37,495 nt of DNA, from positions 1 through 37,495 of the forward strand of contig DATIHK010000028.1 of assembly GCA_035480775.1 (NCBI GenBank), written 5' to 3'. This stretch comes from Candidatus Saccharimonadales bacterium (GTDB lineage: Bacteria; Patescibacteriota; WWE3; UBA101185; UBA10185). The notes beneath the pieces were generated by a model. The model was not told where the DNA came from. It saw nothing but the letters and a program-made list of their open reading frames with translations, and did not search any database. Shown piece by piece: positions 1 through 37,495 of this stretch (position 1 is its first letter; every line of letters starts with the position of its first letter). The translations under genes and the position numbers were made by a program.

Positions 1-1488
1 GATCCGAGTCCAGATCATCAACCGTATACTGCTGGTTATTCTTTTGTAACTAGTAAAAACATACTCTCTATTGGTTGTGATAGTAGTTCAAATCAATTTT
101 TCTGTTGGCCAGTTGACTTGTTGACTGCTGTTATTCAGGCAATTACATCTTTTTTTACAACAGGTTGGACGACTCACACAAATAACACCGCAGGCAAAAC
201 TTGCGGAGGTTTCAATCATACTCCTTCAGATAATGAATGTGCTTCGGGTGACATTAATTGCTCTTGTCTTAATGGAGTCATTACTGAAGATCCACAAACA
301 CTTAGACTTTCGTGTAGCGATCCTAACGGTTGGCATAAAACCCAAGTTTGGATTCAACAATATACCTGCTCAGGTGTAGTACAAACTAAACCTTTTATTG
401 TCGACAATAAACTTCCACTACCTATAAAAGGATTGGCAACAGGAATGCAAAATTTTTGTTTGGCACTTGGTATGGGGCCAGATGATGATAATACCGGTGC
501 ATTGGCTGGAGGTTCTATAGACGTTAATGCCACAAATCAAGCTAGTTTTAAAGAAGGCTTTGGTAGCGATGTAATCTGGGGTGAAGACATGAGTTATATA
601 GTTGACAAGTTTTGTTACAACGCCGAAGGTGATCCGGTTTTCGGTGGCCCAGTTTTTAAAGAACGCAATTTGTCTCAAGGTATCAGAAAAGCCCCTATAG
701 TTCCGGCTGAAGTCGGTGCTTGTTATTTGGGACGTACCGATGGAGGCTACGGAGAAATAACTGGCAGTTTGCCTGATTATTTAGTACAGATTTTGGAGCG
801 GGCAGCATTTGTAAACGACATTCCGGCGGCTCTTATGGTGTCGTACCTATATACAGAAGGCGCTTTCCATAAATATCCAGAATTATTTGACGATGGAGCT
901 GTAATGGCAGGAAGTGCTGAGGGGGCTACGTTTGGTAACTGCGATCCTACGGCTGCTAGTGCTCAAGGTCCATTTGACTGGTTAGATGCATATTGGAAAC
1001 CTCCTATTTCTGACGCAGTTAAAGATGACTTTCCAAATAGAACCCCATTTAGATGTAACTTGCTAGATCAAGCTTATGCTACGGCTAAGAGACTAGCCCA
1101 ATCAGCACAAGGTGCCGGTAGTTATGGACATAATGACTGCGTTGGAGGTGTAAACTGTAATAAATGTTACGGTTTTGAGTATTCAAGTACTCGTGGATCT
1201 TGTGAACATTGGACTATACAAAATACTATATCAGCTTCCAGAGGAATTGCTGGTTTTTGTTGGGATAACCAGTTTTCTGCTGCAGGTGGAGGAAATTATG
1301 CTAATCCAGATTGTTCTCATAAAGATCCTACAACCGGCCAGAGAGTAACTACGACCCCAGATCTTTGTCGCGAAACTTACCAAAATTGTTCAACAGGCTT
1401 GAATGCACACGATCCACCCAACTACTGCTCGAGTCTTCAGTACAGCTTTAACAATATCTTTGAGAGATACAAAAACCCAGCACAATAA
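1..1488 (+). CDS. Cysteine-rich extracellular protein, 5'-truncated by the window edge
   Basis: Frame 1 has no stop codon from nt 1 to 117. The track ORF 118..1488 (TTG start) is therefore probably the tail of a longer CDS. There are 22 Cys in the 495 visible codons and no TM segment. A weak lysozyme/SLT-like stretch is present (YTEGAF ... AQGPFDW). Function unknown. Confidence 0.6.
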   Translation, partial: DPSPDHQPYTAGYSFVTSKNILSIGCDSSSNQFFCWPVDLLTAVIQAITSFFTTGWTTHTNNTAGKTCGGFNHTPSDNECASGDINCSCLNGVITEDPQTLRLSCSDPNGWHKTQVWIQQYTCSGVVQTKPFIVDNKLPLPIKGLATGMQNFCLALGMGPDDDNTGALAGGSIDVNATNQASFKEGFGSDVIWGEDMSYIVDKFCYNAEGDPVFGGPVFKERNLSQGIRKAPIVPAEVGACYLGRTDGGYGEITGSLPDYLVQILERAAFVNDIPAALMVSYLYTEGAFHKYPELFDDGAVMAGSAEGATFGNCDPTAASAQGPFDWLDAYWKPPISDAVKDDFPNRTPFRCNLLDQAYATAKRLAQSAQGAGSYGHNDCVGGVNCNKCYGFEYSSTRGSCEHWTIQNTISASRGIAGFCWDNQFSAAGGGNYANPDCSHKDPTTGQRVTTTPDLCRETYQNCSTGLNAHDPPNYCSSLQYSFNNIFERYKNPAQ

Positions 1489-1491
1489 ACT

Positions 1492-1520
1492 TTGACAAAG
1501 CCGAACATATAGATTAGTAT
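1492..1520 (+). promoter_or_regulatory. Sigma70-type promoter TTGACA-17-TAGTAT, positioned for a leaderless start of the ArsR/suf operon
   Basis: TTGACA at 1492-1497, a 17-nt spacer, TAGTAT at 1515-1520, then 6 nt to the GTG at 1527. There is no SD sequence in between. Confidence 0.45.
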
Positions 1521-1526
1521 CTATGC

Positions 1527-1832
1527 GTGCTCGATTCCGACTCAAAAAAACAAAATACCGCACTTTGTACAACCTGTTTTAAATCACTGGGAATTCCGTC
1601 GTGCATGAAAATTTATCAATATATAAAAAAGCACGGAGCTACTTCGGTAACAATACTTACTAAAATTTCCAACTTAACTCAACCGACTGTTTCGTATCAT
1701 CTTAAAGAAATGAAAATAGATGGATTATTAAGTAGCCAAAAGCACGGCAAAGAAGTTTTATATAGTATCAATCCGTATTGCAATATTTATAAGAGAGAGT
1801 GTGTTTTAAATTCAGTCGAGATTCCAGCTTAA
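1527..1832 (+). CDS. ArsR/SmtB-family winged-helix transcriptional regulator (candidate suf operon regulator)
   Basis: HTH segment SVTILTKISNLTQPTVSYHLKEMKIDGLL is typical of ArsR. An N-terminal Cys cluster (ALCTTCF..PSC) is present. The stop overlaps the sufC ATG (TAATG at 1830-1834). The GTG start is uncertain. Confidence 0.75.
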   Translation: MLDSDSKKQNTALCTTCFKSLGIPSCMKIYQYIKKHGATSVTILTKISNLTQPTVSYHLKEMKIDGLLSSQKHGKEVLYSINPYCNIYKRECVLNSVEIPA

Positions 1833-2575
1833 TGTTAAAAGTTAAAAATCTACACGTAAATATTGGTGATAAAGAAATTCTTAAAGGAGTAGATTTAGAA
1901 TTTGCTCCCAATAAAGTTTACGCTCTGATGGGGCAAAACGGTTCTGGAAAAAGTACTTTGGCACAAGCTTTAATGGGACACCCACAATATCTTGTAACAA
2001 GTGGAAGTGTTGTATTTGGCGGCAAAAATTTACTGGAACTAGATCCAACTTCTCGTGGTCGCGAAGGAATATTTTTGTCTTTTCAATATCCCAGTGAAAT
2101 TCCTGGAGTTACGATTTCGAGCTTTTTGCGAATGATTTACAACAAAAGCCACAACACAAATATGACCCCAGTAAATTTCCGCAAATTACTAAAAGAAAAA
2201 ATGGAAATGCTCGATATCAAAGAAGATTTTATGAACCGCTATTTAAACGATGGATTTTCTGGAGGCGAAAAAAAGCGAATGGAAATGTTACAGATGTTGG
2301 TTTTAGAACCAAAATTGGCGATTCTCGACGAGACCGATAGTGGACTAGATATAGATGCTCTAAATATTGTTGCCAAAGCGGTAAACAGTCTTAAAGACCA
2401 GACTAAAATGACAGTTTTAATAATTACTCACTACACACGAATTTTAGAACATATTGTTCCAGACGAAGTTTTGGTTATGCAAGATGGGCAAATTGTTAAG
2501 AAAGGCGGAAAAGAACTCGCGCATGAACTTGAAGCAAAAGGTTATGCTGAGTACGCTCCGGTGGTAAATGGGTAA
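1832..2575 (+). CDS. sufC: Fe-S cluster assembly ATPase SufC
   Basis: Walker [13 protein letters not shown] signature FSGGEKKR, and Walker [14 protein letters not shown] chose the internal ATG at 1832 (MLKVKNLHV...) over the track start at 1799. Confidence 0.93.
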
Positions 2576-6739: not shown

Positions 6740-6751
6740 TAAAATAAAAAT

Positions 6752-7099
6752 ATGAGTTACCAAATAACTTCTGATAACATTGATCTTTCTCCTAGTATGA
6801 CAGAGTTGGCAAAAGAGAAACTTTCACGAATCGAAGGTCACTTACCAGATTATATGGTAGAGACGAGTTCATTTAGAGTTGTAATGAATACTTCCCCTGT
6901 TGAACAATTTAGTGTTAAAATAGAAGCAGTGATTCATGGCAAAACTTTTTTTGCCGATGAAACTCGGGGAACTTTAGAGCCCGCCCTAGTTTCTGCTACT
7001 GAAGATCTCGATCGTCAAATAGAGCGCCATCTTAAAAAAGAAAAGACAGACGATTGGGAAAAGCAAAGAGAACAAAAAAGATCAGAACCTGAAGAATAA
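6752..7099 (+). CDS. hpf: Ribosome hibernation promoting factor (HPF/RaiA family)
   Basis: The N-terminus ITSDNIDLSPSMTELAKEKLSRIE is the typical sigma54-modulation/HPF fold signature. 115 aa. Confidence 0.85.
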   Translation: MSYQITSDNIDLSPSMTELAKEKLSRIEGHLPDYMVETSSFRVVMNTSPVEQFSVKIEAVIHGKTFFADETRGTLEPALVSATEDLDRQIERHLKKEKTDDWEKQREQKRSEPEE

Positions 7100-7646: not shown

Positions 7647-7705
7647 TAAATTTAAATTGACCATTTTTCATTATTAACGTATATTTTGTTTTAATCAATC
7701 CAACA

Positions 7706-8146
7706 ATGGAGGTTCGGATAATGCCAAACGCATTGGTTATTATTCTCATTTTTTTCTTTTGGATATTGAGTCTGCTAGGAGCTTTACTGGCAAATAGATT
7801 GAATGTTTGGGGAGTTACAACCGGTGTTTTTCAGATGCAGCATCTGGCTTTGAAAAGGATGGCGCTATTTTTATTAATTATTTTAACCCCATTCTTTTTT
7901 TGGCTCTGGCTATTTTTGCAATTCAACAACTGGATTTTTCCGCTTCCTGCTGATGCAAATAAGTACTGGTTTCAAACTTACAGCGGCTGGATATCGATAT
8001 CAGTGAGTTTTTATTTTGGCCTAGGTTTCGGATTTTATATTGCGATATTCGGTTTACATCAAGTTCCTTGGTACACAGCTGGGGGGTTTATGCTTTTTGC
8101 AATCGCTATGATTGTATTATGGGATAGAACTTTTGGACGTAAATAA
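7706..8146 (+). CDS. Polytopic membrane protein, unknown function
   Basis: About 4 hydrophobic helices. The likely true start is the ATG at 7721, preceded by GGAGG at 7708-7712, which is unusual for core genes in this window. Confidence 0.6.
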   Translation: MEVRIMPNALVIILIFFFWILSLLGALLANRLNVWGVTTGVFQMQHLALKRMALFLLIILTPFFFWLWLFLQFNNWIFPLPADANKYWFQTYSGWISISVSFYFGLGFGFYIAIFGLHQVPWYTAGGFMLFAIAMIVLWDRTFGRK

Positions 8147-8149
8147 AAA

Positions 8150-8190
8150 CAAGGCCGCTGGTTCTCACTTTTGAGATGCCATAGGCCTTG
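8150..8190 (-). terminator. Hairpin terminator between convergent genes (best oriented for the recombinase gene)
   Basis: Stem caaggcc (8150-8156) pairs with ggccttg (8184-8190), with an inner hairpin tctca-cttt-tgaga. On the minus strand it is followed by TTTTTATTT. Confidence 0.55.
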
Positions 8191-8215
8191 CTTCATTATT
8201 TGTCTATTTTACAGT

Positions 8216-9091: not shown

Positions 9092-9222
9092 AAATATTCA
9101 ATTTCTTTCTAGGGGCATGGAACCAACCATATTATATGCTATTTGCGCGGTTAAGGCAAATCCTATAGGTCAGGTTAACATCAAGCTTGATATTAGTCAA
9201 CGATTTGTTTACAATAGCCATA

Positions 9223-9594
9223 ATGTCTATGCCTGCTCAGTTAAAATATATAGTCCTATCTATACTTTTTGTGTTGGCCTCGGTCAATTTTACGCGTACA
9301 GCGCTTGATATAGTGCAAAATAGTAAAAGACTAGAAGATCTGCATTCTGATGTTGCCTCTTTACAAAAGCAACAAAGCGACTTAAACGCCTCTATATCCT
9401 ATAAGCAGTCAGTAGACTATATTGAAGAGCGCGCTCGGGATGCCCTAAATTTGATTAAACCTAACGAACAAGCTTTTGTGGTTCCCCAAGGCGCTGGAGT
9501 TTTAGCCGCCGAAGACACTAAGCCGGTTATTTTAAGTACGAAACAGAAACAAGCCTCTAATTTTCAAATGTGGATGCAGCTTTTTCTTAACTAA
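9223..9594 (+). CDS. Septum formation initiator (FtsB/DivIC-like)
   Basis: Single N-terminal TM helix plus a coiled coil (LEDLHSDVASLQKQQSDLN) and YIEERARDALNLIKPNE. I chose the ATG at 9223, which is preceded by TTGATA-17-TACAAT-7 nt (leaderless geometry). Confidence 0.7.
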   Translation: MSMPAQLKYIVLSILFVLASVNFTRTALDIVQNSKRLEDLHSDVASLQKQQSDLNASISYKQSVDYIEERARDALNLIKPNEQAFVVPQGAGVLAAEDTKPVILSTKQKQASNFQMWMQLFLN

Positions 9595-9935: not shown

Positions 9936-10008
9936 TAAATTTTTTAAAAATTGACTTTTAATTTTTCTTTGCTATTTTTAACCTAATCGTATCAACATGG
10001 AGGCCTAA

Positions 10009-10353
10009 ATGGCTAAAATCTTTTTGAAAGTCGTTGATAGGCATCGCTCATATTTGAAAAGTCAGATCGAACAATCCGGTCACAAGGTCGTCGACAGCAT
10101 TGATGTCGCTGATGTTTGCTTTGTGACTTTCGAGACAAACAAACTAGCTGTTCGTGCAATTCCAGTGAATCTGCGTTTCAAATTTATCGTAGAGGGCCTC
10201 ACCCACAGCGAGCGCCTTACGCGCAAGCTTCTCGATGATGCCGGTTTGTGGGGATTTCTGGATGTTTGGGATATTTTTCCACCACTCAACCCAGCATCAT
10301 TCAATTTTTCAGAACGACTCGATATCGCTCTACACCGTCTACAGCCAATGTAA
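10009..10353 (+). CDS. Hypothetical protein (cassette A ORFan)
   Basis: 114-aa ORF with GGAGG at 9999-10003, 5 nt before the ATG. Higher G+C than its flanks (28/60 in 10081-10140). I recognised no family motif. Confidence 0.6.
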   Translation: MAKIFLKVVDRHRSYLKSQIEQSGHKVVDSIDVADVCFVTFETNKLAVRAIPVNLRFKFIVEGLTHSERLTRKLLDDAGLWGFLDVWDIFPPLNPASFNFSERLDIALHRLQPM

Positions 10354-10362
10354 ATCTGTTTA

Positions 10363-10395
10363 CTTCTCCCCGCCATCACAAACGACGGGGAGAAG
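10363..10395 (+). terminator. Hairpin terminator after cassette A
   Basis: 10-bp perfect stem cttctccccg / cggggagaag with a 13-nt loop, followed by ctcttt. Confidence 0.5.
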
Positions 10396-10434
10396 CTCTT
10401 TAAATATTTTCCAAATCTGCTAAATTATCCTTAT

Positions 10435-14977: not shown

Positions 14978-15037
14978 TCTAATTAAAATTGTAGAATCCA
15001 CTTAACATAAACGAAGTCGTTCCCAAAAGGAGCCAGC

Positions 15038-15319
15038 ATGATACGTATCAAACGTGTTAGGCAGTGGGAAGATGTTTTACCGGGATTTAATAACGCCGCA
15101 ATTGTTGTGCTCGTACGAAGAGGCGGTTGTCATATTTTTGTAGACACCATGAAAGTATCTGGTCAACAACGATATCAAATTGAACAGGCCTTTGGTGGAA
15201 AAGACTGCAGCACTTTTCGTAGTATAGATGAGATAAGTGTACTGGTCGATTATCATCTACCAAGAGTTTCATCGAAGTATGCTCGCACTCAGTTGGAAAA
15301 ACTATTTCCGCAGGCGTAA
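15038..15319 (+). CDS. Hypothetical protein (cassette B, ORF 1)
   Basis: 93 aa, with AAGGAG at 15027-15032. An extended -10-like ttgTAGAAT lies upstream. No recognisable family. Confidence 0.55.
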   Translation: MIRIKRVRQWEDVLPGFNNAAIVVLVRRGGCHIFVDTMKVSGQQRYQIEQAFGGKDCSTFRSIDEISVLVDYHLPRVSSKYARTQLEKLFPQA

Positions 15320-15349
15320 CGAAGTTAACAAGCCCAACAAGGAGATAAC

Positions 15350-15718
15350 ATGGACGACACACCGCAGCCCAACATCACGATCAAAGGTTGGAATGGGCCA
15401 GTTTATCCGACTGATATTGAAGAAGCCAATAACTTCTTAATGGGTTACACCGGCAAGGACTATGAGTTGGTTGGCATAGCTGCAGCTATTGGAGGCACTA
15501 TCGGGTATGGAGCTACATCAGAAGCCTCTGTCAAAGGTGCTTTTTCGTATCAGCTGACATTTTATGCCCACCCGGACAGCCGCATCATGATGGCGTTTCC
15601 GCCAAGGAGCAATGGAACGATTCCACGATCAATCGCGTTTTACTACGGAAGAGGCGTCGCGCTTTCACAAATTTCAGCGCTGCTCGAAGAATTTCTTAAG
15701 GTCATAAAGCGCCGCTGA
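15350..15718 (+). CDS. Hypothetical protein (cassette B, ORF 2)
   Basis: 122 aa, with AAGGAG at 15339-15344. G+C is 29/60 in 15361-15420. No recognisable family. Confidence 0.55.
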   Translation: MDDTPQPNITIKGWNGPVYPTDIEEANNFLMGYTGKDYELVGIAAAIGGTIGYGATSEASVKGAFSYQLTFYAHPDSRIMMAFPPRSNGTIPRSIAFYYGRGVALSQISALLEEFLKVIKRR

Positions 15719-22040: not shown

Positions 22041-22270
22041 CCAATCCAACACCACAGACAAGAATTTTGAAAAGTGAGGATGGTTGCTATAACATTGTTC
22101 AGGGTAATTTGCTTTTAATAAATGCCAGAAGTTCGCGTCCGATAGCTGTTCGCGATGGTCCGTATCTAATTGGGAATCTGATTCATGTCATTTCTGAGTT
22201 GGGAATCGATCCGGATTCTGTTGATTGGGGAGAACTCTCACAGTCATACTTCACTCACATGGAAGCTTAG
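22037..22270 (+). CDS. Hypothetical protein (cassette C, ORF 3, possible distant paralog)
   Basis: 77 aa. ATGA overlap with the previous ORF. The C-terminal DWGELS resembles FGDLN/WGTLN in the two upstream ORFs. Confidence 0.55.
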   Translation: MTNPTPQTRILKSEDGCYNIVQGNLLLINARSSRPIAVRDGPYLIGNLIHVISELGIDPDSVDWGELSQSYFTHMEA

Positions 22271-22286
22271 TATCTTTGATTGTCAC

Positions 22287-22334
22287 AGCGGTCGATTTGT
22301 TCTCATCTCTTGAGGCATTTCGGTCGCTTTTTTT
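22287..22334 (+). terminator. Intrinsic terminator ending cassette C
   Basis: Stem agcggtcg / cggtcgct (two G-U pairs) with an inner ctca/tgag hairpin, followed by TTTTTTT at 22328-22334. It abuts the convergent tkt C-subunit stop. Confidence 0.6.
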
Positions 22335-23373
22335 ATACTAACTTAAATTCACCAGGGACGTCGGTGCTTAAATCACCGGTTGCAAATCTTCCACCGATTT
22401 TATTCATTTCTAAAATGGCTAGTTCAATAGCTTTTTGACCTAGTCCATATTTTTCTAACAGCTCATCATAGCTACCAGATTCACCAAAAGTATCTTTTGC
22501 TCCCATTCTTCTAAGTGGAACAGGCATTTTTTCGGTCAGTAATTCGGCAACAGCTCCACCTAGTCCACCAGAAATTTGATGCTCTTCAATGGTAATAACT
22601 TTGCGGGTTTTGCTGACTGATTTCAAAATTGTTTCGCTGTCTAAAGGTTTTATAGTGGAGCAGTTTATAACGTCGCATCTAATTCCTCGGGCGTCTAGTC
22701 TATTAGCAACTTGCAGTGCACTTCTTAGTAACGGGCCGCAACAAATTACTGTAACGTGTTCGCCCTCCATCAAAACTTGTGCTTTACCAATTTCAAATGG
22801 AGTGTGAGAAGTTGTTATATGTGGAGTTGCTTCGCGCGTTAATCGTAAATAAACTGGTCCGACATGATTTGCAGCAGCCAGCGTAGCCTTTTTAGCTTCT
22901 TCATAATCACAAGGAACAATTACTGTCATATTTGGAAGTACCCGCATTAAAGCAATATCTTCTAAAGCTTGATGTGTCGCTCCATCGGGTCCATCTGAAA
23001 ATCCACTATGAGATCCTACAATTTTTACATTTGCGTTGGTATAACAGATTGAAGTTCTAACTTGTAGCCAATTAAGTCCTGCATCAAAAACGCTGTACGA
23101 TGCCATAAACGGAATTTTACCGCTCAGCGCAAGTCCTGCTGCTATTCCGGTCATGTTTTGTTCTGCTACTCCCAGTTCGGCAAATCTATCTGGAAAGCGT
23201 TTTTCAAATAGGTGACTATGGGTGGATTCTGCGAGGTCGGCAGTTAAAACTACGATCTCGCTATTTTTTTCTCCGGCTAAAACCACGCCATCACCATAAC
23301 CAAAGCGTGTGGGAACTTTTTCCACATCGGTATCAAAAATGTTTGGACTTAATTTTAAATCTTGATTCAACAT
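22333..23373 (-). CDS. tkt: Transketolase, C-terminal (pyrimidine-binding plus C-terminal domain) subunit
   Basis: GVAEQNMTGIAAGLALSGKIPFMASYSVF, and a 346-aa length typical of split transketolase subunit B. Confidence 0.92.
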   Translation of the reverse strand: MLNQDLKLSPNIFDTDVEKVPTRFGYGDGVVLAGEKNSEIVVLTADLAESTHSHLFEKRFPDRFAELGVAEQNMTGIAAGLALSGKIPFMASYSVFDAGLNWLQVRTSICYTNANVKIVGSHSGFSDGPDGATHQALEDIALMRVLPNMTVIVPCDYEEAKKATLAAANHVGPVYLRLTREATPHITTSHTPFEIGKAQVLMEGEHVTVICCGPLLRSALQVANRLDARGIRCDVINCSTIKPLDSETILKSVSKTRKVITIEEHQISGGLGGAVAELLTEKMPVPLRRMGAKDTFGESGSYDELLEKYGLGQKAIELAILEMNKIGGRFATGDLSTDVPGEFKLV

Positions 23374-23918
23374 TATTGAGGCTTACACGGTTGCGCTTTT
23401 CTAATAACATCAAACGCAATTTTCCAGTCCGTTTTACTTATCGCTACCAAATCTACTGCAACATTTGGACCGGTTTCTAGTACACAATTTTCTCCCAAAT
23501 CAATTTGCTCAATTGAGACAATAAGACTCTTGTCTGTTTTATCCGAGTAAACTTTTCTAACTTTAACTGTAGATTTTTTTACAGTTTGAGATTGAGTCGC
23601 GACCCCTAAAATATATTCTTTATTAAAGTCCACTTTATCATTTAGAGTGAGCTTACCAGTGCTGTCGACTGTGTTTAAGAAAGCAGCCAACTCTTGATCA
23701 TTATGAATTACTACTCTTTGTTTACTAATGCTAACAGTTGAATCAATATCAACTGGAAAGCCATTTAGTCTTCTCACTTCAGGTTCTTTGTTAAGGAGTT
23801 TAGAAATATTTATATCTCCTGACATTAATAAATATCCGGCACCGAGAATAAGCAAAACCAAAAGCACTACAGGCAATAGACTTATGTTAAAAAGATTAGT
23901 TGGCTTAGTCATATTCAC
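23373..23918 (-). CDS. Signal-anchored hypothetical protein interposed between the transketolase subunit genes
   Basis: N-terminal TM helix (ISLLPVVLLVLLILGAGYLL) plus a 140-aa soluble domain. It overlaps both tkt subunit genes (14 nt and 1 nt). Confidence 0.6.
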   Translation of the reverse strand: MNMTKPTNLFNISLLPVVLLVLLILGAGYLLMSGDINISKLLNKEPEVRRLNGFPVDIDSTVSISKQRVVIHNDQELAAFLNTVDSTGKLTLNDKVDFNKEYILGVATQSQTVKKSTVKVRKVYSDKTDKSLIVSIEQIDLGENCVLETGPNVAVDLVAISKTDWKIAFDVIRKAQPCKPQ

Positions 23919-24777
23919 TCCTTATTTGGCCTTCGAGCGTTCTGAGTTCTTTTAAGGCTTCTCTAGCCTGTTCTTTATCAGGAGGCTTTCCGTGCCATTC
24001 AAATTTATACTCCATAAATTTTACACTTTTTCCAGGGATCGTGTGAGCAATTATAACACTTGGTCGTTGTGACACTGCTTTGGACATATTACACGCGTTA
24101 ATTATCTCTTCGATATTGTGTCCGTCGATTTCGGTTACATACCAGTTAAATGCTTCTAGTTTTTCTCGTAATGGTTCTAAAGGCATTACGTCTTCTGTGT
24201 GTCCATCGATTTGAATATTATTTCTATCCATTATCCAAGTCAAATTGTTTAACTTGCGATTTCCGGCATACATTGCTGCTTCCCATGTTTGGCCTTCATC
24301 AAGCTCGCCGTCGCTCGTCATACAGTAAATTCTGTATGTGGAATTGTTCATTTGCGCGGCTAAAGCCATTCCAATTGCTTGTGAAAGACCTTGTCCTAGA
24401 GGTCCAGAAGTATTTTCGATTCCTGGAAGAGATCCATAATGAGGATGTCCTTGTAAACGACTATCTATTTTGCGCAAAGTCTTTAACTCGGATTTTTCAA
24501 AAAATCCAGCTTCAGCCAATGTCGCATACCAAATGGGGCAGATATGTCCGTTTGATAAAACAAATCGGTCTCGATCTGGATCGTTAGGATTTTTAGGATC
24601 GACGTGTAAAACGTTAAAATAAAGTGCTGCAAAAATATCTGCAGTTCCTAATGACCCAGCGCTATGACCAGATTTTGCTTGTAAAAGCATTTCTATTACG
24701 CTTTCTCTTAGCTTAACTGCTATTTCTTCAAGTTGCGGAATATTTGCATTGTGATGCTGCATTAAAGTTGTGGGCAT
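23905..24777 (-). CDS. tkt: Transketolase, N-terminal (TPP-binding) subunit
   Basis: SGHSAGSLGTADIFAALYF, SNGH, GPLGQGLSQAIGMA and DGELDEGQTWEA motifs. TATACT (RC of 24785-24790) lies 7 nt upstream of the ATG. Confidence 0.92.
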   Translation of the reverse strand: MPTTLMQHHNANIPQLEEIAVKLRESVIEMLLQAKSGHSAGSLGTADIFAALYFNVLHVDPKNPNDPDRDRFVLSNGHICPIWYATLAEAGFFEKSELKTLRKIDSRLQGHPHYGSLPGIENTSGPLGQGLSQAIGMALAAQMNNSTYRIYCMTSDGELDEGQTWEAAMYAGNRKLNNLTWIMDRNNIQIDGHTEDVMPLEPLREKLEAFNWYVTEIDGHNIEEIINACNMSKAVSQRPSVIIAHTIPGKSVKFMEYKFEWHGKPPDKEQAREALKELRTLEGQIRSEYD

Positions 24778-24806
24778 TGGTGAAAGTATAGATTTTACAC
24801 TTCAAA

Positions 24807-24835
24807 TTGACAAGCGGTTGTAGAAACCGTAAAAT
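24807..24835 (+). promoter_or_regulatory. Near-consensus sigma70 promoter TTGACA-17-TAAAAT driving the GC-rich unit
   Basis: TTGACA at 24807-24812, a 17-nt spacer, and TAAAT-type hexamer TAAAAT at 24830-24835. It is divergent from the tkt promoter. Confidence 0.5.
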
Positions 24836-25037
24836 TCCGGTATCAAATAACGAAAGGAGAGGCTATGCATAATGGTTAGTCGGATCACGGAGGCAATTGG
24901 TTAGAATAGGCGCTGCCGCGATTTCCAGCCGCTAGCCGCAACTATGCCAAGCACTGGTTACCGCGCCATCCCGACATAGTGATGCAGCCGGCATCACTGC
25001 CTTATTGGACGTGACCATGTTTTCCTGAGGAGGCCCG

Positions 25038-25184
25038 ATGCTCGAAATGCTCGTCGCAATGGCGCAAGCACTCGAAAGCACCGTGGTGCTGCAGCAAGAA
25101 ACCCAGAAGGCTATCCAGCCGTCTGAATCCGTTCGCGGATGGATGGTTTCATCGCTCAGCAACATGGATCGCCAGATACCCTGA
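25038..25184 (+). CDS. SD-led 48-aa micro-ORF in the GC-rich unit (coding status unproven)
   Basis: GAGGAGG at 25027-25033 lies 4 nt before the ATG. Translation: MLEMLVAMAQALESTVVLQQETQKAIQPSESVRGWMVSSLSNMDRQIP. It is below the ORF-track size cutoff. Confidence 0.35.
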   Translation: MLEMLVAMAQALESTVVLQQETQKAIQPSESVRGWMVSSLSNMDRQIP

Positions 25185-25298
25185 AGGGTTCCACCGCCTT
25201 TCAGTCCAAAACCGCTATGCATGTGTAGTGGATCTCACCTGAGCTTAGTTGAGATAGCGTAGCTAGGGAAGCAAAGCGAACATCTACAAGGAGGCACC

Positions 25299-25406
25299 AT
25301 GAAGACCGTCCAGACCCATGGAAAGTGGAATAACATCAATATCACCGCCAACACCTCCACCGGCGCCGGCCAGAGCCTGCGCACCGCGAACGTCAACATC
25401 GACTAG
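25299..25406 (+). CDS. SD-led 35-aa micro-ORF in the GC-rich unit (coding status unproven)
   Basis: AAGGAGG at 25288-25294 lies 4 nt before the ATG. Translation: MKTVQTHGKWNNINITANTSTGAGQSLRTANVNID. It is Asn/Thr-rich, with no Cys and no hydrophobic segment. Confidence 0.4.
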   Translation: MKTVQTHGKWNNINITANTSTGAGQSLRTANVNID

Positions 25407-25556
25407 ATCCGCGGCGCGGCCTGAGCAACACGTGTAATACCCGGCGGCAGTCTCGGCCATCTTCGGCCCCTGTTTTATGGATCTTGGCCATCGGCCTAGA
25501 TGCCGCCGGCTTTGTACTTTGGTTTGATTGCCTTTGATGAAGTAGAATCTGATTTT

Positions 25557-25643
25557 GGCGCCGCAAGTTCCGACGAGACCACTCATCTCGCACGAGCTTC
25601 CGGCGCCCTTTTTTTACCACCTAAAGGTGGCAAGTTTTTTTTT
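25557..25643 (+). terminator. Tandem intrinsic terminators ending the GC-rich unit
   Basis: A long imperfect hairpin ggcgccg...cggcgcc (25557-25607) followed by TTTTTTT (25609-25615). Then ccacc-taaa-ggtgg (25617-25630), followed after 4 nt by T9 (25635-25643). Confidence 0.6.
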
Positions 25644-25657
25644 GAAAACTTTAAGTG

Positions 25658-29643: not shown

Positions 29644-31423
29644 TGCTATTATAATACCCACGTTTCTGTAAATTATGCAAGCCCCAAATTTCCGCAACAG
29701 ATGTAGATTCTTGCGGTCGTTTGTCTGGTCTAAATTTAATTAATCTAGGAAATCTTAATGCAAATCCTGCACTATGTGTCGAAGATTTTGATATCTCATC
29801 TCCTCCAATTTCGACTACGATTTTTGGCTGAACCCAGACATCGGGAGAATAAAATTTATTTACGTCACTATTTTTAGGTTTGTCGTTTGTTTTTAATTTA
29901 TCAATTTGTTCACGTAATTTAACCCATTCTTCATCTGTTAAGCCCGATCCAACTTTGGTAAAAGTCTTATATGTATCAGTTTTTTCATCATAAACACCTA
30001 CTAAAAAGGTTCCAATGCCAAATTTATTGCGATTTCCCTTGCCAAACCAGTAACCTAAAATTACCACATCAATAGTGTCGTCGAGTAATTTTTGATCTGC
30101 TTTTTTATATTTAACCCAACTAAATGAGCGTGCCCCAGCTTGATATGGATCGGTTGGAGTTTTTAGCATCATACCTTCTAGGTTTTGTTCTTTGGCTTGT
30201 TCAAAAAAATCTTCTAAATCTTCGACCTTTGTGGTTTCGATGTGATAGCTGAGTTCAATAACTTTGTTTTCTTTGATAATTGATTTTAAAAGCTTTTGAC
30301 GATCTTGTAGGGACTTGTCCATCAATGATTCACCATTTAAGTAGAGTAAATCAAATACAAAATATCTCAGTGGAATTTCTTTGGCTATTTCGGCAATATC
30401 GTGCTTGCGTTTGCGCTGCATAATTTCTTGAAAAGGCAAAAACTCTCCACTTTCTTTGTTATATCCAATTGCTTCGCCATCTAAAATAACCGAATCAGCT
30501 TTTATATTTTTATCAGCAGCTTCAATCAAATCAGGAAACTGATGTGTGGAGTCTTCGAGATTGCGGGTATAAGTTTTTATAAAAATGTGTTCTTTTTGTT
30601 TGTCTGTTGCGAACAGGTCTTTTTGTGTTGAATCTTCTTTAATTTTTTTCTTACGATCTAGGTGAAGTTGAACACGTGTTCCGTCAAATTTAAACTCTGC
30701 CCAAACATTTCCCATTTTTTCGACTATTTCATCAATAGTTCCCAGACGCTGAGCTCTTTGTGGCAAGATAGGAACTCCAGTCTCAATTTTTACATTCTTG
30801 ATACCTTTTATTCCATCAGTTTTTAATTTAAGAGCAATCAGTCCTAAATCTGGGTGCATATTATATTTATCTTCTATTTGCTCAGAAAGTTTTTTGTCTC
30901 CCAAAAATTCTGCTAAAGCATTTATGATAGTTAACTCAGTAAATCCAAGTCTGGTAGTTCCTAAAACAATTCTGACTACAAACTTTGCCGATAATGCATC
31001 TAATTCCTTCAGTAAATTTGCAAGTTTTAAAACTTTTATCTCTTGTGAACCAGAACCTTCAATAACAGCTATTTCTAAAAGTTTTGTGTGAACTGCCGAA
31101 ATATCTAGTTTAGTTTTAGTTTCTGTTGGAGCTATTTGAAAGGTAACAGTACCTAAATCGCCTTCTTTTCCGTACATCTTTTCGACATCATCTTTATTTT
31201 TGTTATAGGCGCTAGATAGCACGCGAACAACCATTTTATCTGCCATATTAAATTTGGGATTTTCAAAAAGTGCTTTTAAACCTCCTTGAGACATGTAGAC
31301 AGCTTTATCTATTTCTTTTTCGCTAAGCTTATCCAATAATTCCGCGAGAATAGAGGTAATTTCAAGTCTTTTGGACGTGCTTTCTAAGCGTTGTAAATAT
31401 TGTGCAAAATCAGAAAATTTCAT
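29630..31423 (-). CDS. lig: ATP-dependent DNA ligase (archaeal/eukaryotic Lig1-like, three-domain)
   Basis: Adenylation motif I EFKFDGTRVQLH, motifs LDGEAI and FVFDLLYLNG, OB-fold region, and an N-terminal DNA-binding domain. 597 aa. TATAAT lies 7 nt upstream of the ATG. Confidence 0.92.
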   Translation of the reverse strand: MKFSDFAQYLQRLESTSKRLEITSILAELLDKLSEKEIDKAVYMSQGGLKALFENPKFNMADKMVVRVLSSAYNKNKDDVEKMYGKEGDLGTVTFQIAPTETKTKLDISAVHTKLLEIAVIEGSGSQEIKVLKLANLLKELDALSAKFVVRIVLGTTRLGFTELTIINALAEFLGDKKLSEQIEDKYNMHPDLGLIALKLKTDGIKGIKNVKIETGVPILPQRAQRLGTIDEIVEKMGNVWAEFKFDGTRVQLHLDRKKKIKEDSTQKDLFATDKQKEHIFIKTYTRNLEDSTHQFPDLIEAADKNIKADSVILDGEAIGYNKESGEFLPFQEIMQRKRKHDIAEIAKEIPLRYFVFDLLYLNGESLMDKSLQDRQKLLKSIIKENKVIELSYHIETTKVEDLEDFFEQAKEQNLEGMMLKTPTDPYQAGARSFSWVKYKKADQKLLDDTIDVVILGYWFGKGNRNKFGIGTFLVGVYDEKTDTYKTFTKVGSGLTDEEWVKLREQIDKLKTNDKPKNSDVNKFYSPDVWVQPKIVVEIGGDEISKSSTHSAGFALRFPRLIKFRPDKRPQESTSVAEIWGLHNLQKRGYYNSNGTK

Positions 31424-31521
31424 CTAGGTGATTATATAGCTCAAAGTGCTTTGCTCAAAATTTTGTGATATATTGCGTTTAGCCAAGACAGCCAAATCTT
31501 TATTATAATAAGGAGACAGCC

Positions 31522-31824
31522 ATGTTAGTGTTCTCGGCAGGAATTATAATTGGCGGTTTATGTGGATTTTTTGCCGGAGTTGCAACTTTGCACGAGGTAT
31601 TAAAATCGAATGGTTGGATAATCGGCGCAATTAAAGATTTTCGAAGCTCTATATATCCTCGAGACAATTTAGCTGAATGGTTTAATGGGCTTCCGGTCTA
31701 TCGCCGACTGCTAATTCTTTATTATGCCCGCTGGCCTAATTCCATCATGGATGTGGATCACAAAATGTATCCCGAAGCAGATCCAGTTCTCAAAGCTTTA
31801 GCTGCATCATTGAAAATCGACTGA
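31522..31824 (+). CDS. Hypothetical small membrane-anchored protein (cassette E ORFan)
   Basis: 100 aa, with AAGGAG at 31510-31515 and an N-terminal TM helix (LVFSAGIIIGGLCGFFAGV). G+C is 28/60 in 31681-31740. Confidence 0.55.
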   Translation: MLVFSAGIIIGGLCGFFAGVATLHEVLKSNGWIIGAIKDFRSSIYPRDNLAEWFNGLPVYRRLLILYYARWPNSIMDVDHKMYPEADPVLKALAASLKID

Positions 31825-31850
31825 GCTGTTCTGAGATTTCTTATTTTCTA

Positions 31851-31887
31851 CGCTCATACCAGCCTTTCGGCCGGGTGGGCGTTTTTT
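31851..31887 (+). terminator. Intrinsic terminator ending cassette E
   Basis: Long GC-rich stem cgctcatacc-agcc-tttc-ggcc-gggtgggcg followed by TTTTTT at 31882-31887. It abuts the convergent Fic-like stop. Confidence 0.6.
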
Positions 31888-34006: not shown

Positions 34007-34851
34007 AGAAGAGTTGGTTGATTGCCTTCGGGTTGGCAAGAAGGGCAGAAATAGGTAGATCTTCCATTTATTTTAATAACGCATACTTTGGAATTACAAA
34101 CGGCGCAAGTAGTTTTATTATAAATTCTAAAATAATTTTGGTGCGTCCCGTATTTACCCAGTGCGTCGACAAATCCTTTGTCTTCTAGAGTAGAGCCGCG
34201 GTGTTCAATTCCTTCTAGTAAAATCTCCTTAGCAGTTTGTAGAAGCTTTTCGGCTTGCTTTAGACTAATTAGACTGGTTGAAGTCTGCGGATGAATCTTG
34301 GCCATAAATAGAGCGTCTGTGGCATATATATTTCCTAGTCCCGAGATAATTTCTTGATCCAGCAAAACATTTTTTATACTAGATCTTTTGGATTTGATTT
34401 GAGCCAAAAATTCTTCCGCAGTTAGATCTGGATTAATTGGTTCAGGTCCGTATCTGTTTTGCATTGCTTCTATTTCAGATTTTGTAACTACTACAACTTT
34501 TCCAAACATTCTGACGTCTCTAAATTTAAGTCCTAAAGACTTTTTGCCATTATCAAGAACAAAAGTTACTCTTTCGTGCGAAAACTTGCGGGTTTTTGGA
34601 TCAGAAAGCAAAACTTGCCCTGTCATTGCAAGGTGAAAGACTAGTGAATCTTCTGATGCGAGTTCGATAACAATATTTTTGGCAATTCTGTAAATACGAA
34701 TAATTTTTTGCCCTACAAGCTTTTTTTTAAAAGTTTCGTTATCGGGTAAAGCTTTGTACCCCGGTTCTATTTCAACCTTTTCAAATGTAAAGCCTAACAA
34801 ATATTTTTTGAGGTCACTACTGACTGTTTGTACTTCGGGTAATTCTGGCAT
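34003..34851 (-). CDS. mutM: Formamidopyrimidine-DNA glycosylase
   Basis: N-terminal MPELPEV (second Met of the track ORF), an H2TH region, and the C-terminal zinc finger CAVCNSKV...YFCPSCQ. Confidence 0.92.
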   Translation of the reverse strand: MPELPEVQTVSSDLKKYLLGFTFEKVEIEPGYKALPDNETFKKKLVGQKIIRIYRIAKNIVIELASEDSLVFHLAMTGQVLLSDPKTRKFSHERVTFVLDNGKKSLGLKFRDVRMFGKVVVVTKSEIEAMQNRYGPEPINPDLTAEEFLAQIKSKRSSIKNVLLDQEIISGLGNIYATDALFMAKIHPQTSTSLISLKQAEKLLQTAKEILLEGIEHRGSTLEDKGFVDALGKYGTHQNYFRIYNKTTCAVCNSKVCVIKINGRSTYFCPSCQPEGNQPTLL

Positions 34852-34860
34852 CAAAGCCTC

Positions 34861-35985
34861 CTATTTTTGCGAGTGGGCTTCCCACGCATTTGCTACAAAT
34901 TCGGCGAATTCTTTTTTAAATTTTTCTTTACTAAAGCCAAAGTTCTGCATATCTAACTTTATTTCTTGAGAGTTAAAATGATGTTTTCTGATTGCTTCGT
35001 CAAACTCTTTTACTTTTTTAACTAGGCATTCGACTGTAATTTCGTCAAAAAACATTCCGTCACGATCTTCTTTGATTGTTTCTAAAACTCCTCCAGATCT
35101 GTGCGCCAATACCGGTTTGCCGTGATACATTGCTTCTATAGGAGTTAATCCAAAGTCTTCGTCTTTAACCGGAAATATAAATCCAAGGCAGTTTTCATAC
35201 AAATCGTTTTTTTGCGCTTCAGAGACACCTCCAACGAATTGAATATTTGGTTTAGCCATTTTTTTAAGTTGCATTTCTTGCGAGCCAGTTCCAGCAATGA
35301 TTAATGGCAATCCAAGTAAATTAAAAGTTTGTACTAAAAGATTAAAGTTTTTGTAGTTCACTAAACGTCCTAAAGCTAAATAATATGGAGGTTTAAGATT
35401 GTTTGTATGTGGTTTGGTAGTTACATCTACTTCGACTGGTGGATAGATAACTTGCGCATCCCGATTGTAAAATTTCTTGATGCGACGCTGAATTTCGAAT
35501 GAGTTAGCAATCAAAAAATCCGGACGTTGAGCAGCTTCAAAATCCCAAATTCGTAAATAATGATCTAAATACGCGACAAAAGGCTTGAACAAAAAATTGT
35601 TTCGAACTGTGCTTTCTGTAGAGTACTTATACAAAAATCGAGGTGGGGTATGAATATAGCTAATATGTAATTGTCGAGGAGTTGTTAAAACACCTTTTGG
35701 CCAAGCTGTTCCATCAGAAATAATTAAATCGTACTGTCGTAAATCAAAACTTTCAAATACCGTAGGCATTAAAAAGGTAAAGATTTTAGGAAATTTATCA
35801 AACCAGCTGTTATTAGAACTATAGATTGTTCGTTGATTAATTTTGTCAGAAACTTTTTTTCGGTCGTAGATTCCTGTGTAGATAGGTGCGTTCGGAAACA
35901 ACTCCATTATAGCTTCTAGAGTTTTTTCTGCGCCTCCAATTTGATTTAAATAATCGTGTACTAACGCCACTTTTGGCTGGTTCAT
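34861..35985 (-). CDS. GT4-family (GT-B) glycosyltransferase
   Basis: C-terminal EDFGLTPIEAMYHGKPVLAHRSGGVLETI, the EX7E-type motif. tgTATAAT lies 6 nt upstream of the ATG. Confidence 0.88.
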   Translation of the reverse strand: MNQPKVALVHDYLNQIGGAEKTLEAIMELFPNAPIYTGIYDRKKVSDKINQRTIYSSNNSWFDKFPKIFTFLMPTVFESFDLRQYDLIISDGTAWPKGVLTTPRQLHISYIHTPPRFLYKYSTESTVRNNFLFKPFVAYLDHYLRIWDFEAAQRPDFLIANSFEIQRRIKKFYNRDAQVIYPPVEVDVTTKPHTNNLKPPYYLALGRLVNYKNFNLLVQTFNLLGLPLIIAGTGSQEMQLKKMAKPNIQFVGGVSEAQKNDLYENCLGFIFPVKDEDFGLTPIEAMYHGKPVLAHRSGGVLETIKEDRDGMFFDEITVECLVKKVKEFDEAIRKHHFNSQEIKLDMQNFGFSKEKFKKEFAEFVANAWEAHSQK

Positions 35986-36072
35986 AGGTAGATTATACAG
36001 GCATTATAACGTTTCGGGGAATCTATGTAATATATTATTGACACGCTATCTTATTCATGAGTACATAGTTGT

Positions 36073-36600
36073 ATGCAGAAAGGTTCAAGCGGCCTTCTGG
36101 TCATTATTTTTATCGCTTTGCTCGTCATCTTGCCCGTTTCCACTTGGGTAGTTATAAAATCGACAGCTAAAGATGGCTCAGTGCAAGGTGCCTCCACAGT
36201 AGATTCATCATCTACTTCTCCTGGTTTTTCTGTAAATGTTGTTGCCAAATCGAGTGGTTGGGATTTGGAAGAGTATGTGTGCAAAACATTAGATGAGTGT
36301 TCAAATTCTCCAGAATCAGGTATGCGCTGGGCAACAATTAGTGGAGGTCAAACAGCGCTGCATAAAGTAGATGTTTTATACACCTCTGAATTAGACTCGT
36401 ACTCGTACATGAAAGTTCTTGTTAAATCTGGTTGGGGAACATCCTTGAAGACCTTTAAAATTAGTGAGGCCGGAAGTGTACCAGGATCAAAAAAGCAAAC
36501 TCTAAAAGATGGTCAGGTAAATTATGATGTGTTGTTGCTGCCTTTAGATAAGGTAAAAACTGCTTTTTATACTTCCGCAACTTTTTCTGATAATTTATGA
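36073..36600 (+). CDS. Signal-anchored exported protein, unknown function
   Basis: N-terminal TM helix (LLVIIFIALLVILPVSTWVVI) followed by a Ser/Thr-rich linker. ATGA overlap with the next ORF. Confidence 0.6.
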   Translation: MQKGSSGLLVIIFIALLVILPVSTWVVIKSTAKDGSVQGASTVDSSSTSPGFSVNVVAKSSGWDLEEYVCKTLDECSNSPESGMRWATISGGQTALHKVDVLYTSELDSYSYMKVLVKSGWGTSLKTFKISEAGSVPGSKKQTLKDGQVNYDVLLLPLDKVKTAFYTSATFSDNL

Positions 36601-37076
36601 TTTTAATAGATAAAAATTCCAAATTGTGGGCTTATTTGGCTGACGATATAAAAGGCTTACTTGCAGATGGAGAAAATTTAGTTAATGAAGCTGAACACTT
36701 TAGCGGAAAAATTTCTGATTACTCTTACTTGGTATTTCCATTTTCAAAAGGTTATGAAGGGTTTTTAAAAAAATTGTTTTTAGATTTACATATGATACGT
36801 GATGATGAGTATTACGGCGATGATATAAGAATAGGTCGTGTATTGAACCCACATTATACTCATGAGCCAAGTTCGGTATATAAAAAGATTCTACTTCATA
36901 AAAATGGCGGTGAAGCCTTGGGGGAAAAACTTTGGAATGTCTGGAAACGCGGTCGTAACAGTGTATTTCACTACTTTCCACATAATTTTAAAAAATTAAC
37001 TTATGCTGAAGCACTCGAAATCATTACCGAAGAGCTATCGGTTATGGAAGCAACTGTAAGTCTTGTAAAATCTTGA
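36597..37076 (+). CDS. Hypothetical protein with a HEPN-like Rx4H motif
   Basis: 159 aa and mostly helical. KRGRNSVFHYF contains R-N-x3-H-Y as in DUF86/HepT-type HEPN RNases. The assignment rests on this motif only. Confidence 0.55.
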   Translation: MILIDKNSKLWAYLADDIKGLLADGENLVNEAEHFSGKISDYSYLVFPFSKGYEGFLKKLFLDLHMIRDDEYYGDDIRIGRVLNPHYTHEPSSVYKKILLHKNGGEALGEKLWNVWKRGRNSVFHYFPHNFKKLTYAEALEIITEELSVMEATVSLVKS

Positions 37077-37115
37077 TATAATAACACTCAACTTTCACAC
37101 TCGGAGGATCTATAC

Positions 37116-37451
37116 ATGGCAGACGTGCAATTACCAGCTGCTCGAGCAGCTTATCCTGCTTCATTACGAATCGGAATTTTTACTTCTGGTAAAAACGGTA
37201 TTAGCAACAAGCAGCTCGGAAGAGGCATTTTCACAGACACTGTAGATGGTGCACTTAGGTTTAAGGTAGACACTAGTGAAAACACAGAATTTAGAGTAGG
37301 TGAAACATTGACCGTTAGAAGTGTCTTACCTTTGCCGCATGTGAATCGCAGAAATAACGACAAAACGCTTGTATGTAAAGGTCGTGTAGAAAAAGTAACA
37401 CCTGGATTCAAAAAGACAGTAGTCATTTTAAGAATACGACCCATTGACTAA
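37116..37451 (+). CDS. Hypothetical protein (cassette F ORFan)
   Basis: 111 aa, predicted beta-rich, with GGAGG at 37103-37107. No family recognised. Confidence 0.55.
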   Translation: MADVQLPAARAAYPASLRIGIFTSGKNGISNKQLGRGIFTDTVDGALRFKVDTSENTEFRVGETLTVRSVLPLPHVNRRNNDKTLVCKGRVEKVTPGFKKTVVILRIRPID

Positions 37452-37463
37452 GAGGAGTAACGC

Positions 37464-37495
37464 ATGAATCAGCCAGCACGCATAAAACTTCCATT
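37464..37495 (+). CDS. Start of a further SD-led ORF, truncated by the window end
   Basis: GAGGAG at 37453-37458 lies 5 nt before the ATG at 37464 (MNQPARIKLP...). Only 10 codons are visible. Confidence 0.35.
   Translation, partial: MNQPARIKLP

Follow-up and report, generated by a model that had tools for sequence, protein, structure and literature searches.

Why do neighbouring genes on one bacterial chromosome begin with two different kinds of start signal? The question is raised by a 37,495-nucleotide stretch of contig DATIHK010000028.1 (assembly GCA_035480775.1), hereafter the window, from a member of candidate division WWE3. The first genes of its conserved core operons have promoter-like -10 hexamers 6-9 nt before their start codons, while small open reading frames (ORFs) in the gaps between core operons have strong Shine-Dalgarno (SD) sites. 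We refer to the seven insertions that hold these small ORFs as islets A to G (Table 1). A previous reading of the letters alone, the sequence-only reading, had described two initiation regimes here and likened the small-ORF cassettes to phage “morons” or, alternatively, to a distinct, differently translated gene class. Our analysis showed that the pattern is real, but that its two halves are each known already, one from leaderless genomes and the other from islets of acquired genes. We put the probability at roughly 70% that WWE3 has a leaderless genome of the type called group C (described below) into which leadered, SD-dependent accessory islets have recently been acquired.

A putative leaderless signature in core genes

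All nine core promoter/start pairs listed in the sequence-only reading are present in the window, with the coordinates and spacings given there. The same geometry is kept in orthologues across WWE3 (relatives' loci carry L numbers): the -10 box lies 6 nt from the ATG of hpf in three relatives (L005, L008, and L009) and 6-7 nt from that of nth in five (L005, L006, L008, L009, and L010). For nth, hpf, and divIC, the box stays at 6-7 nt though the surrounding sequence is unalignable. To this we added a census of 444 ORFs from 23 non-redundant WWE3 loci, in which conserved and lineage-specific ORFs were separated by cross-locus blastp and a -10-like hexamer was required to match at 5/6 positions or better, with A2 and T6 obligatory. 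In the 328 conserved ORFs, such hexamers peak at 6 and 7 nt before the start codon, with 25 and 30 matches there (55 in total) compared to about 2-3 at most other positions. A TGn extension precedes 32% of the conserved-gene boxes, which are then of the extended -10 type. Genes preceded by a gap or by a divergently oriented gene have the signal in 36-45% of cases, versus 11% for abutting genes, and because it is confined to operon-first genes we regard it as a promoter rather than an AT-rich ribosome-binding site (RBS). A -10 box 6-7 nt from the start codon would place the beginning of the mRNA at or beside the AUG, suggesting that the core operon-first genes are leaderless.

Shine-Dalgarno sites of the small ORFs

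The small ORFs have a different signal. We calculated the pairing energy of positions -20 to -1 with ACCUCCUUA, taken as the anti-SD. The mean for 41 core genes is -1.6 kcal/mol, which is the background level (-1.7 at random positions), whereas 13 small plus-strand ORFs average -8.9 kcal/mol and 11 of them reach -7.9 or below (Mann-Whitney p = 1.5e-6 against the core genes). A scan that used no gene list gave the same picture, as 23 of 89 SD-core clusters are followed by an ATG within 3-9 nt when 8.6 would be expected (p = 9e-6). On the plus strand, 11 of these ATGs begin an ORF of at least 35 aa; all 11 lie in core-gene gaps and are exactly the ORFs noted before. Each start that had been listed as SD-led has an AGGAG, GGAGG, or GAGGA core 3-8 nt before its ATG. 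ORF 22037 lacks an SD, and its start forms an ATGA overlap with the previous stop.

The further claim that core genes have no SD describes their mean well, but it was overstated. In the window, fpg (an internal gene that starts 9 nt past the GT4 stop) and the conserved membrane-protein gene starting at 23912 both have strong SDs, and the latter keeps its SD in orthologues from L091 and L005. In relatives, strong SDs were found on trpS (L009/L103), tktC (L010), LOG (L012), and dnaK (L110). Because some conserved genes carry such sites, the host ribosome is evidently SD-competent, as judged from gene sequences. A survey of ribosomes in the candidate phyla radiation (CPR) reported anti-SD loss in a Parcubacteria subgroup only (PMC9297842).

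The association of SDs with lineage-specific genes also holds in the relatives by themselves. With the window excluded, a strong SD precedes 15 of 79 lineage-specific ORFs (19%) versus 16 of 299 conserved ones (5%; Fisher p = 3e-4), numbers in which SDs are undercounted since the census takes the first ATG as the start. SD-led lineage-specific genes have their -10-like hexamers 12-37 nt upstream and none at 5-9 nt. It could be argued that the start signal is set by transcript architecture, not gene origin, with genes that are neither 5' in the transcript nor overlapping needing an SD and foreignness being secondary. Both SD-bearing core genes of the window are internal, strong SDs in conserved genes are commonest (9%) among abutting internal genes, the SD-less ORF 22037 is coupled to its predecessor, and large lineage-specific genes in relatives are of the leaderless type, all of which would be expected. 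Architecture gives no reason, however, why the islet genes should be leadered in a genome whose native -10 boxes lie at 6-7 nt, and it accounts for neither the shift in GC content at third codon positions (GC3) nor the absence from relatives described below. Moreover, about 90% of abutting core genes manage without an SD. As a full account we think it unlikely. It is compatible with acquisition of leadered islets by a leaderless genome, and we have folded it into that explanation rather than treating the two as exclusive.

Islets as lineage-specific insertions

Core gene order is kept across 39 syntenic WWE3-type loci, and tblastn (E <= 1e-3) found no match to any islet ORF in them. The junctions themselves differ widely in length. 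The exo-nth junction spans 1211 bp here, compared to 5-66 bp in some 18 loci and 111-1226 bp, of varying content, in the rest; pfkB-tktC spans 992 bp here and 2-56 bp in 17 loci; and tktN-LOG spans 881 bp here, 75-129 bp in five loci, and 540-1831 bp in others. Composition also sets the insertions apart, with a GC3 of 0.446 in islet ORFs versus 0.264 +/- 0.025 in core genes (p = 2e-6). Islets A-E have a GC content of 42-53%, compared to 36.9% for the core, which puts them at the 95th percentile or higher among core windows of the same size. The cassettes are therefore lineage-specific insertions of atypical composition between conserved transcription units, as had been proposed, although the GC elevation holds for islets A-E but is marginal in F and lacking in G (7721).

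Each islet consists of a promoter-like site, an SD leader, and one to three ORFs of 35-141 aa in a total of 0.4-1.2 kb. The leaders are 24-45 nt long (about 200 nt in islet D), the SD lies 3-8 nt from the ATG, and the core promoters flanking the islets are intact. The terminal hairpins are much more stable than shuffled sequences, with z-scores of -3.9 to -5.2 for six of eight segments folded, and most hairpins are followed by a U run. We thus recovered the promoter-like sites and hairpin terminators that the sequence-only reading had seen in most cassettes, while the hairpin of islet F would lie beyond the window. ORFs 21425 and 21735 of islet C are weak tandem paralogues. In islet D, third-position periodicity coincides exactly with the two SD-led ORFs (GC3 0.67 and 0.89) and is missing from the minus-strand ORFs, one of which was called in the annotation of a deposited metagenome-assembled genome (MAG) of the same species. 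That annotation misses or mis-strands the SD-led ORFs of islet D and has no call across a gap in the 37116 region.

A more basic doubt is whether the small ORFs are genes, as the GC-rich inserts might be non-coding or structured RNA whose SD-ATG pairs arise by chance or from structure. No homologues were found for the five ORFs searched and no Pfam, PHROGs, or PADLOC family for any ORF scanned, the structure models are of low confidence, coding periodicity covers just about 250 of islet D's 850 nt, and the fold of islet D is modestly more stable than those of shuffled sequences (z = -2.8 for the plus strand, -4.2 for the minus strand). Against this, the SD-ATG excess and the confinement of plus-strand pairs with an ORF of at least 35 aa to gaps would be hard to explain, ORFs of 88-141 aa are improbable by chance at 38-45% GC, and the ORFs have a coding-type GC1/2/3 pattern with a GC3 peak. 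In addition, an allele of 37116 differs at 16 sites with its frame kept and mostly conservative changes, and nothing in the inserts matches Rfam even at E <= 1. We therefore consider it very improbable that the islets are non-coding. Structured RNA in islet D was considered separately and could not be established from the modest folding z-scores and the lack of an Rfam match, although a regulatory leader or small RNA is possible there. The islet D segments 24842-25037 and 25407-25556 have about 55% GC and no codon periodicity.

Table 1. Start signals of core genes and components of the islets, in window coordinates
Feature	Coordinates (strand)	Signals and content
Core start	1515..1529 (+)	TTGACA, 17 nt, TAGTAT, 6 nt, GTG 1527
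Core start, hpf	6740..6754 (+)	TGaTAAAAT, 6 nt, ATG 6752
Core start, divIC	9210..9225 (+)	TTGATA, 17 nt, TACAAT, 7 nt, ATG 9223
Core start, trpS		TGcTAAATT, 8 nt, ATG 10435; from the sequence-only reading, confirmed
Core start, ftsH		TATAAT, 9 nt, ATG 11464; from the sequence-only reading, confirmed
Core start, nth	16177..16191 (+)	TACAAT, 6 nt, ATG 16189
Core start, tktN	24775..24813 (-)	TTGTCA, 17 nt, TATACT, 7 nt, ATG 24777
Core start, ATP-dependent DNA ligase	31421..31458 (-)	TTGAGC, 16 nt, TATAAT, 7 nt, ATG 31423
Core start, GT4 glycosyltransferase	35983..35997 (-)	tgTATAAT, 6 nt, ATG 35985
Core gene with SD, fpg	34849..34862 (-)	AGGAGG 5 nt before ATG 34851; -10.2 kcal/mol
Core gene with SD, conserved membrane-protein gene between tktN and tktC	23910..23923 (-)	AAGGAG before ATG 23912
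SD-led starts, confirmed		10009, 15038, 15350, 15847, 21735, 25038, 25299, 31522, 37116, 37464; weaker 21425; also 7721
Islet G	7657..8195 (+)	Downstream of tRNA-Ile(UAU); promoter-like TTGACC-17-TATATT (7657-7685); SD GGAGG 7708
Islet G ORF	7721-8146 (+)	141 aa, membrane-like; hairpin ~8150-8190, -23.1 kcal/mol
Islet A	9951..10398 (+)	Downstream of tRNA-Met; promoter-like 9951-9978; SD GGAGG 9999; GC 43.5%
Islet A ORF	10009-10353 (+)	114 aa, ORFan; hairpin 10363-10395, -18.1 kcal/mol
Islet B	14992..16174 (+)	exo-nth junction; two units; GC 43.9%
Islet B unit 1		TAGAAT 14992; SD-led ORFs 15038-15319 and 15350-15718; hairpin 15739-15773, -21.7 kcal/mol
Islet B unit 2		TATAGT/TAAAAT ~15794-15804; SD-led ORF 15847-16113; hairpin 16144-16168 with U run
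Islet C	21367..22335 (+)	pfkB-tktC junction; promoter-like TTGGGA-16-TATAAT (21367-21394); leader ~24 nt; GC 43.2%
Islet C ORFs		21425-21733, SD GAGGA; 21735-22040, SD AAGGAGG; 22037-22270, ATGA-coupled
Islet C putative terminator	22287-22328	Hairpin with U7, -18.3 kcal/mol
Islet D	24807..25650 (+)	tktN-LOG junction; promoter-like TTGACA-17-TAAAAT (24807-24835), best promoter match of the window; GC 53%
Islet D leader		~200 nt, GC-rich; SD-led (AGGAG) 4-codon mini-ORF, ATG 24865
Islet D ORFs		SD-led 25038-25184 (48 aa) and 25299-25406 (35 aa, GC3 0.89)
Islet D putative terminators	25557-25607 and 25617-25630	-27.7 and -10.8 kcal/mol
Islet E	31480..31885 (+)	Between lig and fic; promoter-like TAGCCA-18-TATAAT (31480-31509); SD AAGGAG 31510; GC 42.4%
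Islet E ORF	31522-31824 (+)	100 aa, hydrophobic N-terminus; hairpin 31850-31882 with U run, -18.1 kcal/mol
Islet F	37077..37495 (+)	TATAAT 37077-37082; SD GGAGG 37103; ORF 37116-37451 (111 aa)
Islet F second ORF		Starts 37464; SD GAGGAG 37452; runs past the window end

Conserved junctions as hot spots

Where the exo-nth, pfkB-tktC, or tktN-LOG junction is not empty in a relative, it is filled with unrelated small genes that are often SD-led, which is the behaviour of flexible genomic islets. The fillers include a pair of SD-led receiver-domain genes (Pfam PF00072) in L010, a gene in L090/L004 that resembles PIN-type toxins by its N-terminal motif and is preceded by a small ORF, a putative GIY-YIG-like gene in L094 (judged by its sequence motif), and SD-led ORFans of 102-130 aa in L006, L009, and L011. 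The closest parallel to islet D is the tktN-LOG insert of L097, which has 54% GC in a 42%-GC locus and comprises TTGACA-17-TACAAT, GAGGAGG-4-ATG, an ORF encoding a 162-aa membrane protein, and a terminator. It has the orientation of islet D, yet the two are not homologous. GC content is elevated relative to the respective locus in the tktN-LOG inserts of L097 (15499-16280), L094 (8771-9387), and L103 (15939-17065). In six lineages the genes inserted at this junction run antisense to the operons on either side, and in one they share their direction, a bias that is suggestive without reaching significance. An Rfam search of the corresponding gaps in seven relatives found no family.

The sequence-only reading had also emphasized that the cassettes all sit on the plus strand. 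This is true of all seven islets here, but it is not a general rule, because analogous SD-led ORFs in relatives occupy both strands. Seven independent islets would in any case give at best p ~1/64.

Comparison of close strains also pointed to exchange at these sites. Between the window and L088, a contig from SRR9179563, all 16 single-nucleotide polymorphisms (SNPs) in 1962 bp fall inside the 336-nt ORF 37116, and the 1.58 kb of flank is identical; the alleles differ by 10 amino-acid changes. ORF 37116 is the only one in the islets with enough SNPs for estimation of the ratio of nonsynonymous to synonymous substitution. In comparison with the deposited MAG (L001), 22 mostly synonymous SNPs are clustered at 14764-14952, in the last 200 nt of exo and adjoining islet B. 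A second cluster, of 20 mostly synonymous SNPs in otherwise near-identical sequence, lies at 23544-23880. Both tracts look like recombination from a diverged strain, and the position of the exo tract is consistent with recombination breakpoints at islet borders.

Searches for homologues and mobile elements

Scans of the islet ORFs with Pfam, PHROGs, and PADLOC gave nothing significant. When 15350, 37116, and 10009 were compared with 5.8 billion proteins in word-indexed searches, nothing beyond the proteins themselves or same-species alleles was retrieved. A HMMER scan of 1.84 billion representatives with a 21425/21735 profile recovered only the profile's own members and two large, repetitive proteins that match over a short repeated motif, which we judged non-informative. 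Likewise, no match was found when two islet ORFs were scanned against IMG/VR or when plasmids and phages were searched by blastn with islet D. The structure model of 10009 is unusable, with a predicted local distance difference test (pLDDT) score of 49. That of 37116 is a beta-barrel with weak PilZ-like similarity, at low confidence (pLDDT 61, template modelling (TM) score 0.5-0.59). The gene just upstream, at 36597-37076 (159 aa), falls just under the Pfam cut-offs for RnlA-toxin DBD (26.6 versus 27 bits) and HEPN_RnaseLS (27.4 versus 29 bits). Together with the islet F ORFs, it may form a toxin-antitoxin or defence-type module, although PADLOC found no match in this region and the low-confidence PilZ-like model of 37116 is not that of a known RnlB antitoxin.

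Could the islets be what remains of prophages or integrative elements, either as true morons or as cargo that outlasted the decay of the element? They have the moron-like combination of own promoter, terminator, and atypical GC, islets A and G are directly 3' of tRNA genes, and a tyrosine recombinase gene is present at 8216-9091. That recombinase, however, is a conserved core gene of the XerC/D type in all relatives, and most islets are located between protein-coding operons rather than at tRNAs. We found neither genes of phages or mobile elements nor repeats or att-like duplications at the flanks, and the PHROGs and IMG/VR results (the latter for two ORFs) offer no phage relative. We thus give a prophage origin very little credence and retain “moron” as an analogy only. 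An integron, insertion-sequence, or miniature inverted-repeat transposable element origin was also rejected, because the islets are not bordered by terminal inverted repeats or by any repeat that they have in common. Assembly chimerism was rejected as well, since independent Logan contigs span the islet-core borders.

Proposed explanation and comparison with known systems

In our preferred explanation, of a leaderless WWE3 genome with acquired SD-dependent islets, translation would begin by three routes. Promoter-proximal conserved genes would use sigma-70-type, often TGn-extended -10 boxes 6-7 nt before the start and so be leaderless; downstream operon genes that overlap or abut the previous stop would be translated by coupling, presumably through termination-reinitiation without an SD; and a minority of genes would depend on a canonical SD site. 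The islets would have been inserted as insulated expression modules at conserved transcription-unit junctions, in the lineage of this species only. For six of the seven, the elevated GC3 and the absence from all relatives suggest recent horizontal acquisition from higher-GC, SD-using donors, while the 7721 islet has no composition signal. Homologous recombination in the conserved flanks probably installed or exchanged them, with donor and route being read from these patterns; no recombinase or repeat was found to accompany the islets. On this view, WWE3 would depend chiefly on the leaderless and coupled routes, although its ribosome has stayed SD-competent.

Several points weigh against this explanation. 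Leaderless initiation is deduced from sequence geometry, with predicted transcription start sites. Neither donor nor homologue was found for the five ORFs searched, and the argument for horizontal origin is drawn from composition and from the distribution among relatives; lineage-specific genes that diverged rapidly, instead of being acquired, retain some probability. Islet G has normal GC. In islet E, the -10 box and the SD directly adjoin, an arrangement in which the two predicted signals could not function together. Acquired genes are also not always SD-led, since leaderless geometry is seen in several of the larger lineage-specific genes of relatives. Finally, the data cover some 48 kb of this genome and some 400 kb from relatives.

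The nearest known system is the “group C” class of genomes defined with GeneMarkS-2, in which leaderless transcription coexists with RBS-led genes, as in Mycobacterium tuberculosis and Deinococcus deserti, and a Pribnow box is found about 6-10 nt from the start of operon-first genes; most of the genomes described in this class are from Actinobacteria and Deinococcus-Thermus (Lomsadze et al. 2018, PMC6028130). The WWE3 peak at 6-7 nt in operon-first genes falls in this range, within the 6-8 nt spacing common to both, and genes with the leaderless geometry coexist with SD-led ones in the one genome. The separate gene class offered by the sequence-only reading is therefore not needed, as dual leaderless/SD initiation is already a known group C pattern (PMC6028130). 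Our case differs in its lineage (WWE3/CPR), in that most internal operon genes lack an SD, and in that SD use is concentrated in small, recent, GC-richer accessory genes rather than in native leadered genes.

The islets in turn resemble several kinds of accessory element. Phage morons are autonomous extra genes in prophages, located between phage genes. Like them, the islets are small genes with their own promoter and terminator and a differing composition, set between functional units, but they lie in the chromosome among syntenic housekeeping genes. They share with the hot-spot islets of pangenomes conserved flanks, content that varies between lineages, atypical composition, a lack of mobility genes, and recombination tracts at borders. 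They differ in being very small (0.4-1.2 kb with one to three tiny ORFs) and in having complete expression signals that contrast with the leaderless style of the host. Integron cassettes are likewise small, single-gene, mostly ORFan units in a common orientation. The WWE3 islets have no attC-like repeat or IntI, however, and they are dispersed rather than arrayed, each with its own promoter and terminator.

Leaderless/SD coexistence is already known (PMC6028130), and hot-spot islets of atypical composition are standard pangenome biology. We found no published description of leaderless initiation in WWE3/CPR. What is new here is the lineage, the near absence of SDs from native internal genes, and the concentration of SD use in tiny acquired modules. 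The result is a useful and testable description rather than a new mechanism. One practical consequence is that gene callers for CPR/Patescibacteria need a leaderless model for the core and an SD/atypical-composition model for small accessory genes. The conserved intergenic hot spots also indicate the sites at which these reduced genomes acquire very small foreign genes and replace them, and the ORFan peptides of the islets are candidates for strain-specific host-interaction or defence functions. It is tempting to go further and propose that in WWE3, and perhaps in other Patescibacteria, SD initiation is almost reserved for fast-turnover acquired small genes in insulated hot-spot islets, the core being leaderless or coupled. 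We regard this stronger claim as speculative and distinctly unlikely. If it were true, the two translation pathways would be separable regulatory channels through which accessory, host-interaction, or defence peptides could be switched apart from housekeeping functions, and the type of start signal could mark gene age genome-wide.

The window, its genes, and its relatives

Assignment of the organism to candidate division WWE3 (Katanobacteria, CPR/Patescibacteria) is based on the relatives of its Nth protein and on contig titles. The Nth protein (16189-16824) is exactly matched in CAYYOH010000004.1 and three short Logan contigs, and its closest other relatives (60-82% identity) are from WWE3 genomes and metagenome contigs, including the complete genome CP006914.1. 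The window is 99.6-99.9% identical to contig CAYYOH010000004.1, which belongs to MAG GCA_964473275.1 (the deposited MAG referred to above), and by this identity is a closely related strain or assembly. The MAG contig has N runs at window positions 20807-21040, where its pfkB call is truncated, and 37330-37430, where ORF 37116 is broken. The window fills both gaps with continuous sequence, and we therefore take it to be a different assembly of the same population. This population is also present at the sites sampled in SRR9179559, SRR9179560, and SRR9179563.

The whole window has a GC content of 37.8%. Its housekeeping genes comprise the suf cluster, hpf, xerC/D, divIC, trpS, ftsH, a 5'-3' exonuclease gene (exo), nth, a dsbA-like gene, pfkB, fba, a split transketolase, rpe, rpiB, an ATP-dependent ligase gene, a recF-like gene, fpg, and a GT4 glycosyltransferase gene. 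The ligase (29630-31423, minus strand) is a 597-aa ATP-dependent enzyme of the archaeal/eukaryotic type with a leaderless-type promoter, and it is kept in WWE3 relatives. Also kept across WWE3 relatives is the placement of a membrane-protein gene (23373-23912, minus strand) between the N- and C-terminal transketolase halves.

An Rfam scan of the window, both at the gathering cut-off and at E <= 1, identified three tRNAs alone. The first is a tRNA-Ile(UAU) at 7570-7646, just preceded by a GC-rich segment at ~7520-7569. The UAU anticodon of tRNA-Ile is uncommon in bacteria, the usual form in most of them being a CAU tRNA modified with lysidine. Further along are two tRNA(CAU) genes, at 9674-9747 and 9860-9935. 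The tRNAs at 7570-7646 and 9860-9935 are both followed by TAAATTT, a TTGAC promoter-like site, and an SD-led ORF.

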